A stretch of 64,000 bases of DNA, from positions 7,998,001 to 8,062,000 of the forward strand of contig OZ024760.1 in assembly GCA_964016885.1 (NCBI GenBank). Reading direction: 5' to 3'. The number at the start of each line of letters is the position of its first letter. Position 1 is the first letter of the stretch. A program made the position numbers and the translations under genes. Source of the DNA: Eledone cirrhosa. Lineage: Eukaryota. Below, piece after piece: positions 19,463 through 20,232 of this stretch. Under the pieces are notes generated by a model. That model made no database searches and had not been told where the DNA came from. It saw only the letters and a program-made list of their open reading frames with translations.

Positions 19463-19887
19463 GCCATTTGAAAGGAGAACTTTAAGTTATCCTTTCAATA
19501 TGTACTATACATACACCTTTGACGAGTTGTAGTGCACCTGAGCACTTTACACAATAATTTCATTATTATTAAAAACAAATAACGAAACGAAATTAAATTT
19601 TGTTTCGCTTCTAACTCACTTTTGTATGACTGACGCTTAAACAATTAAGTTAAAGTGTACATCTACATATGTATACGGAAGTATTAGTATGCATATAAAT
19701 ACACACATGTATACATATGTACATGTACTGAGTTTTTCACTAGACACTTTACAGTGAGTGTCAGCTAGTCTGTATGTAACCACACAGACGGACCGGGTTT
19801 TAGAGTCATACGAGTTTTCAAGGAAACACATTTCCTCTATTCTCCAGAGAGCCAGACAGGAATATTGGACTAGCCGGAAGATGGGTA

Positions 19888-19932
19888 AATATTGCTGATG
19901 AGATGTAATAACATCGAAACTAGTCCAATATT
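19888..19932 (+). ncRNA. Minimal type I hammerhead ribozyme
   Basis: AATATTG CTGATGA GATGT-AATA-ACATC GAAA CTAG TC CAATATT: 7-bp helix I, intact core, 5-bp helix II, palindromic helix III ACTAGT, GUC site. Confidence 0.9.
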
Positions 19933-20232
19933 CCTGTCTGGCTCTCTGGAGAATAGAGGAAATGTGTTTCCTTGAAAACTCGTATGACTCTAAAACCCGG
20001 TCCGTCTGTGTGGTTACATACAGACTAGCTGACACTCACTGTAAAGTGTCTAGTGAAAAACTCAGTACATGTACATATGTATACATGTGTGTATTTATAT
20101 GCATACTAATACTTCCGTATACATATGTAGATGTACACTTTAACTTAATTGTTCATTATTATTATTATTATTAAATGGCCCCTTTTTTAAAAAAAATAAT
20201 TTATTTTATTTTACTTCTCATTTTTCTTGTAG

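Follow-up and report, generated by a model that had tools for sequence, protein, structure and literature searches.

The window analyzed here is the whole stretch of 64,000 nucleotides of Eledone cirrhosa DNA, and positions without a locus label refer to it. It carries an M1 aminopeptidase gene on the + strand, with ERAP1_C matches lying in order at 4467, 8763, 13340, and 18407 (4 of the 150 scanned frames), one of them above the cut-off and three below. These matches and the in-phase flanking exons agree with the preliminary description, which had placed a palindrome in an intron of an aminopeptidase gene read on this strand; the 26-aa exon at 20233 gave no match of its own in the Pfam scan. 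The insertion found in this intron spans 19570–20153 (584 bp) and consists entirely of sequence from a 469-nt unit, which we number from the base following the ribozyme cut. Its outer ends fall at two sites of the unit, 70 nt apart: S, the inner site (unit 225–230), and T, the outer site (unit 295–299). The features of the locus are as follows:

18433–18573, + strand: upstream M1 aminopeptidase exon (ERAP1_C positions 217–266).

19559–19571, + strand: target-site duplication, left copy, with TTCATTATTATTA (13 nt) as its longest match.

19570–19639, − strand: 70-nt tail (unit 229–298), present on one side only; 69/70 letters continue the tandem unit.

19640–19873, − strand: left inverted arm (unit 464–469 and 1–228), starting, together with the tail, at outer site T.

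19872–19873, no strand: inversion junction with a 2-nt AG microhomology, where unit 466 (left arm) is joined to unit 418 (right arm).

19874–20153, + strand: right arm (unit 418–469 and 1–228), ending at inner site S.

19879–19939, + strand: type I hammerhead ribozyme with a one-pair helix III; predicted cut 19925/19926.

20152–20164, + strand: right copy of the target-site duplication, continuing into (ATT)n.

20233–20311, + strand: downstream exon, in phase with the upstream exon.

The palindrome has 234-nt arms (19640–19873 and 19920–20153) that are exact reverse complements (100%) around a 46-nt spacer, just as the preliminary description had reported. That description took the 514-bp palindrome for the whole structure; the palindrome is real, but the element extends 70 nt farther left, to 19570. 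Its left arm passes the ribozyme cut by 4–6 nt and ends inside ACTAGT. After allowing for overlap with the element ends, the target-site duplication in the window comes to approximately 10–11 nt, and an insertion-free paralogous flank is found at 21745–21820. Folding of the whole palindrome predicts a hairpin of −439.7 kcal/mol; Rfam microRNA matches within it were rejected as by-products of the perfect hairpin.

A sense hammerhead is indeed present at the apex. Helix I is formed by 19888–19894/19926–19932, with an outer part at 19879–19885/19933–19939, and is followed by CUGAUGA (19895–19901), helix II (19902–19906/19911–19915), and GAAA (19916–19919), with the predicted cut after GUC, between 19925 and 19926. 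Helix III is a single A-U pair with the loop CUAG, inside the palindrome ACUAGU (19919–19924). The core elements CUGAnGA, GAAA, and UH and helices I–III are all found, which from the sequence makes the motif a putative type I hammerhead. It had been called perfect, which goes too far in view of helix III, with its lone pair and palindromic loop. The Rfam HH9 model scores it at 32.4 bits (E 2.8e-6), under the gathering score of 52, and an Rfam scan of the 64-kb window returned no hammerhead at gathering level. By score, the motif is outside the HH9 family, though its predicted fold is of the same class. Hammerheads with a one-pair helix III are described as poor cleavers on their own that become active when dimers form within tandem repeats (PMC4209133, PMC7229834). 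Because this type is reported to need a dimer, the predicted lone copy in the window is likely weak at self-cleavage.

A search of the genome with 19874–20060 returned 1541 candidates; 40 of them were scored, and these are 99–100% identical to the query. A 24-mer of the unit has 563 exact matches. The tandem unit is seen in the 30 fetched loci, with copies spaced 469 nt apart at three of them (L007, L014, and L026). The same spacing occurs in an array on contig C1 that exceeds 55 kb (G000:C1:95620983–95676189 and beyond, L054–L060) and has an S end; this array is a possible source locus. The copy in the window is a partial unit. Mapping of the whole unit revealed neither protein-coding capacity nor an LTR, and most of 142 insertions sampled (see below) are free of internal sequence from outside the unit. 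The window insertion has no reverse transcriptase (RT) or GIY-YIG open reading frame, so it is not an autonomous Penelope-like element (PLE). Judged by these sequence features, the family is a non-LTR retrozyme, i.e. a non-autonomous Penelope-like element, and its copies number in the hundreds to thousands. The locus itself reads as one recent insertion of a young, 469-bp, hammerhead-bearing tandem element; the copy is new, and the class of element was already known. A self-copying palindromic family, of the MITE type, was considered and rejected, as the window junction is unique and joins differ among copies.

The family includes a second subfamily (B) of 467 nt, ~88% identical to the main one (A), with GUU at the cut and a compensatory A-U to U-A change in helix II; both changes are also found in public runs. 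Words of the unit occur in public runs (X1–X13) from nine organisms, 6 rows containing at least half of them, and both subfamilies are visible in runs from two of the nine organisms as well as in an additional raw-read run. A third retrozyme family of ~425 nt is 69% alike, with the tail region and the core in common (L289:890–1455, L272:2790–3260), and it ends at a matching T site beside (TA)n.

In order not to select insertions by their ribozyme, we anchored a sample on S and T ends that lie beside ATAT. Genome matches number 595 for S (including repeats on the reverse strand) and 2799 for T; out of the first 100 listed per site, all on contig C1, 60 places for S and 90 matches for T were examined. 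Removing 8 of these 150 fetched loci, which were the same place fetched twice or apparent segmental duplicates, left the 142 insertions: 100 inverted, 33 simple, 5 open, 3 complex, and 1 unresolved. Inversion is thus the norm in this family, as sampled on contig C1 with an ATAT flank needed. For 83 of the 100 inverted copies both outer ends are canonical, 9 have non-canonical far ends, and 8 run past the fetched stretch.

Members of the family share two fixed outer ends 70 nt apart, a target duplication, and variable joins with microhomology, and they appear to target AT microsatellites. All 83 fully visible inverted insertions pair one S end with one T end, whether anchored on T (44) or on S (39), and none is S/S or T/T. 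Among the simple copies, 8 of 33 bear a stub of an inverted arm of the opposite type. In an earlier set selected by the ribozyme, 12 of 13 fully visible inverted copies are S/T and one is T/T (L024). The flanks of this sole T/T insertion (L024/L025) are an inverted duplication with 94–96% identity over ~600 bp. Dispersed copies have a target-site duplication of ~10–15 nt where informative; among the 83, 56 are uninformative (pure TA) and 5 lack any. A (TA)4 lies within 20 nt of 82 of the 83, which is partly by design of the ATAT-anchored sample, and the earlier set, unselected for flank, also has AT-rich or microsatellite targets.

The joins and the divergence between arms provide further evidence. 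Among 65 joins with a 0–12 nt overlap, 33 overlap by at least 2 nt, compared with 17% by chance (P = 7e-10), and 18 by at least 4 nt, compared with 2.5% by chance; the others have a gap of unmatched letters (33) or a long overlap (2). Divergence between the two arms within an insertion is 0.7%, compared with 2.4% (A) or 4.5% (B) between insertions, and they are the closer pair in all 64 insertions whose arms share at least 100 bases. This shows that the two arms come from one source. Arms in register differ by 0.76% and those out of register by 0.75%, i.e. origin from the same RNA molecule or from the same array is not separable by this comparison. At least one arm is longer than one unit in 60 of the 83 insertions, which fits circular and linear multimer templates alike.

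The preliminary description also proposed that the ribozyme sets the inversion point. In mechanistic terms, the RT would run off a self-cleaved 5′ end, or stall on the folded hammerhead, and that end would be joined. Such a role is not supported by the family, whose joins, with 227 inner arm ends, fall all round the unit. Seven of these ends are at most 5 nt from the cut (5.0 expected, corrected for arms passing each base) and 4 in unit 464–467 (1.8 expected, P = 0.11). Some influence is nevertheless suggested by the 24 ends in unit 1–26, just 3′ of the cut, where 12.3 are expected (nominal P = 0.002), by a deficit in unit 430–469 (10 vs. 18 expected), by the insertions that have an end no more than 10 nt from the cut (12 of 83, with 7.3 expected), and by five real junctions centered on the helix III palindrome; stop positions are also not uniform round the unit (chi-square P = 0.011). 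However, the scan-corrected P for a 20-nt window is 0.25, the excess amounts to approximately 12 stops in roughly 320 passes (~4% per pass), and 121 of 166 arms read through the cut, as do both window arms. Genome-wide, a search for arms that begin exactly at the cut matches 2 places, only one of them in the 469-nt family; the exact-break patterns used for this position and for unit 466 detect about half of such breaks in subfamily A. That the ribozyme has at most a weak role agrees with results reported in PMC11167929, where dead ribozymes left insertion unchanged and no read ends fell at the cut in vitro. As a general account of the inversions, we consider ribozyme-set joins quite improbable, although they may apply to a small share of arms, perhaps including the window's own. 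There is at most a weak, two-fold excess of ends just 3′ of the cut, and a slight influence of the ribozyme is possible. An apex like the one in the window is seen in roughly one insertion in ten, and its join beside the ribozyme is likely due to chance. Self-priming offers another route to an inverted arm, whereby the cDNA or RNA of the same element folds back at a short palindrome, here that of helix III (the model of PMC3846280). The end of the left window arm inside ACTAGT is compatible with it, as are the five junctions found genome-wide at the center of that palindrome, unit 466 (all real, 3 already in the sample, counted without control positions), the identical inner ends of 3 of the 83 insertions, and the 11 with inner ends within 20 nt (7.3 expected). 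We claim no hot spot at unit 466, as five other positions are hit 4 times each in the sample and unit 466 three times. Fold-back should also leave one arm contained in the other, yet the window arms have unshared stretches of 70 nt (left) and 46 nt (right), 25 of the 83 insertions are not derivable from either arm (26.8 expected under independence), inner ends lie a median of 85 nt apart, and arm lengths are uncorrelated within insertions (Spearman 0.06, n = 83). These counts disfavor self-priming for most copies, and we view it as unlikely.

Two other explanations concern the window copy in particular. The arms are perfect, so that one could think of a fold-back artefact of the assembly or library. 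However, the symmetry stops at canonical element ends, the flanks differ, the tail is one-sided, a target duplication is present, and the exons run on in order and phase across the insertion. The junction has a single occurrence genome-wide; in four public runs aligned to 19740–20055 the family and its variants are present and no record bridges it, though the individual may differ, and one further run gave no alignment to this interval. We give an artefact next to no credence, and, because the canonical ends are asymmetric, the target duplicated, and the exon order intact, the palindrome is confirmed as real at the level of the assembly. The structure might also be kept as a regulator of the aminopeptidase pre-mRNA, with a silenced ribozyme and a long double strand near a splice acceptor. 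Its sense orientation, 80 nt ahead of exon 20233, and the predicted hairpin are in line with this, and the proposed sequestration of the ribozyme by the left arm is borne out as a folding prediction, with 14 nt of that arm displacing helix I. Such sequestration is plausible, but it would follow from any inversion of this kind, selection being unneeded. Moreover, with arms of 100% identity and a right arm that agrees with other copies at 280 of 280 positions, the insertion is too young for a signal of selection; the acceptor and pyrimidine tract of exon 20233 lie outside the structure; and hundreds of similar structures exist elsewhere in the genome. Regulation is therefore a most improbable reason for its presence. 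A host function is not needed to explain the insertion, and there is no sign of host use.

The explanation we prefer is that the insertion was probably copied into the intron by a Penelope-like RT and endonuclease acting in trans, and is a palindrome probably because both cut strands primed cDNA. The pairing of S with T, the independent arm lengths, and the microhomology favor two separately primed cDNAs over fold-back, and the family suggests that each insertion has two starts, made at two fixed RNA sites. In the sequence of events we propose, a Neptune-type protein would cut an AT run with a stagger of ~10–12 nt, after which one target strand would prime at S (unit 225–230) and the other at T (unit 295–299), on tandem or circular RNA. 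Each cDNA would then halt at a largely arbitrary point, and the two cDNA 3′ ends would be joined where they have a few bases in common and then filled in, yielding a head-to-head repeat that is tailed on one side. For the window copy, the T cDNA would have halted just beyond the cut, whereas the S cDNA would have crossed the whole ribozyme and thus left it in the hairpin loop, likely by chance.

Candidates for the autonomous partner were sought through PF01541 (GIY-YIG), with 10595 candidates, at least 150 scored, and 50 loci examined. None of these 50 loci has a terminal repeat matching the 469-nt unit, the matches being other retrozyme insertions, and for this reason we infer the PLE partner rather than name it. 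The genome does have long frames with an RT plus, at the C terminus, GIY-YIG, and 5 of the 6 examined carry a C-x5-C-xx-C motif, which has been assigned to the Neptune and Nematis types and linked to microsatellite targeting (PMC8557442). For example, the PLE-type frames at L278:2809–5622, L279:2488–5019, and L280:1275–4562 (938, 844, and 1096 codons stop to stop) contain RT, GIY-YIG, and the C-x5-C-xx-C linker. The family itself presents both hallmarks of EN+ PLEs, i.e. two alternative 3′ ends that bound a tail, and an inverted, truncated 5′ copy.

More generally, we lean toward the view that Penelope-type integration is a paired two-primer reaction of one enzyme complex, with the inner site used for one strand and the outer site for the other, always one of each, and a microhomology join. 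If so, a single event would account for the tail, for the inverted copy, and for the one-tail rule, and the faint excess of stops 3′ of the cut would mark a few cleaved or stalled templates; the family would also supply start sites, cut geometry, and a minimal RNA for testing. In a literature search of mainly open-access main texts, exclusive of the 2005–2006 Penelope reviews, the S/T pairing rule was neither stated nor counted for retrozymes. How inverted, tailed PLE insertions form has been named as unresolved (PMC8557442), and the steps after first priming were left unvalidated in the accessible text of PMC11167929. The locus is of little importance in itself, and the family is of some value for understanding PLE integration: being young, abundant, short, and non-coding, it gives counts beyond those of a single autonomous copy, including strict end pairing, independent arms, microhomology, one source, and a ribozyme site with >95% read-through. 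Where a long, perfect palindrome lies near a hammerhead in genomes of this kind, a retrozyme insertion should be the first reading.

In L1 twin priming, each of two target strands primes a cDNA, and a microhomology join between the two cDNAs produces an inversion; they are copied from different parts of one RNA, with a second priming site that varies. By contrast, both cDNAs here would begin at fixed sites, 70 nt from each other, and would have the same sequence as template, which results in a palindrome.

Non-LTR retrozymes have been argued to be non-autonomous derivatives of PLEs (bioRxiv 10.64898/2026.07.22.740005). Expression as linear and circular monomer RNA is a further trait of the class. 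Like those of other animals, the family consists of low-GC, non-coding tandem units of a few hundred bases with one type I hammerhead each (PMC7229834), with dimers to long arrays, target duplications >4 bp, and co-occurring PLEs (PMC7229834; bioRxiv 10.64898/2026.07.22.740005). Its 469-nt unit is slightly above the range of 170–450 given in PMC7229834 and inside that of 51–972 in bioRxiv 10.64898/2026.07.22.740005. In Xenopus, >40% of retrozyme copies are in introns (PMC7229834; bioRxiv 10.64898/2026.07.22.740005). The inverted insertions and two fixed ends mapped here do not appear in the accessible parts of these two sources. In newt and axolotl satellites, the type I hammerheads, which depend on a dimer, likewise have a one-pair helix III, a palindromic tetraloop, and a tandem context (PMC7229834, PMC4209133). 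Unlike in those satellites, the window insertion contains a single whole ribozyme, and hence no dimer partner in cis, with an activity that is predicted only.

The resemblance to EN+ PLE insertions includes the head-to-head inverted, truncated copy, the tail that is often one-ended, and apparently the microsatellite targets (PMC3846280, PMC8557442), with target duplications of 8–10 bp in the EN+ PLEs (PMC3846280, PMC8557442). The 469-nt family differs in having no open reading frame and a tail of ~70 nt, compared with 30–40 (PMC3846280, PMC8557442). The one-tail rule is counted here, in 83 of 83, and the data favor two primers over the self-priming put forward in PMC3846280. In vitro, the Poseidon PAc protein cuts ATT, extends both strands, and starts at two internal sites between which the tail lies (PMC11167929). 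Two tail-bounding starts, an ATT or AT-rich target, and insertion for which ribozyme cleavage is unneeded are common to both systems (PMC11167929). That study, in its accessible text, concerns an autonomous element with start sites alike on both strands, the pairing of sites lies outside its scope, and the joining of inverted products is not addressed (PMC11167929).

A second, unrelated retrozyme is present in the same gene at 10733–11733. It is inverted and lies in a (TA)n run; its unit measures 310 nt, one of its three hammerhead motifs is in sense and the other two in antisense, its 29-nt tail is one-sided, and there is a 3-nt overlap at 11400–11402. It has the same build, and its join is >100 nt from its ribozyme.

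Other repeats surround exon 20233. A 72-bp minisatellite flanks it at 18999–19407 and 21914–24780 in opposite orientation (~95% complementary), which makes a second long double strand around the exon possible in the pre-mRNA, and a GGT-rich run at 20320–21220 is partly self-inverted. Farther along the window, hammerhead-like motifs are found on the + strand at 52655 and 48452, and the frame 52816–53046 matches a PX domain (E 4.7e-11), which points to another gene or a retrocopy there. On the − strand, a LINE fragment at 46166–47581 consists of interrupted reverse transcriptase frames and, after them, a PHD finger, and two identical, weak tRNA-like matches (29.2 bits) at 30055–30123 and 31658–31726 are likely the heads of tRNA-derived SINEs.
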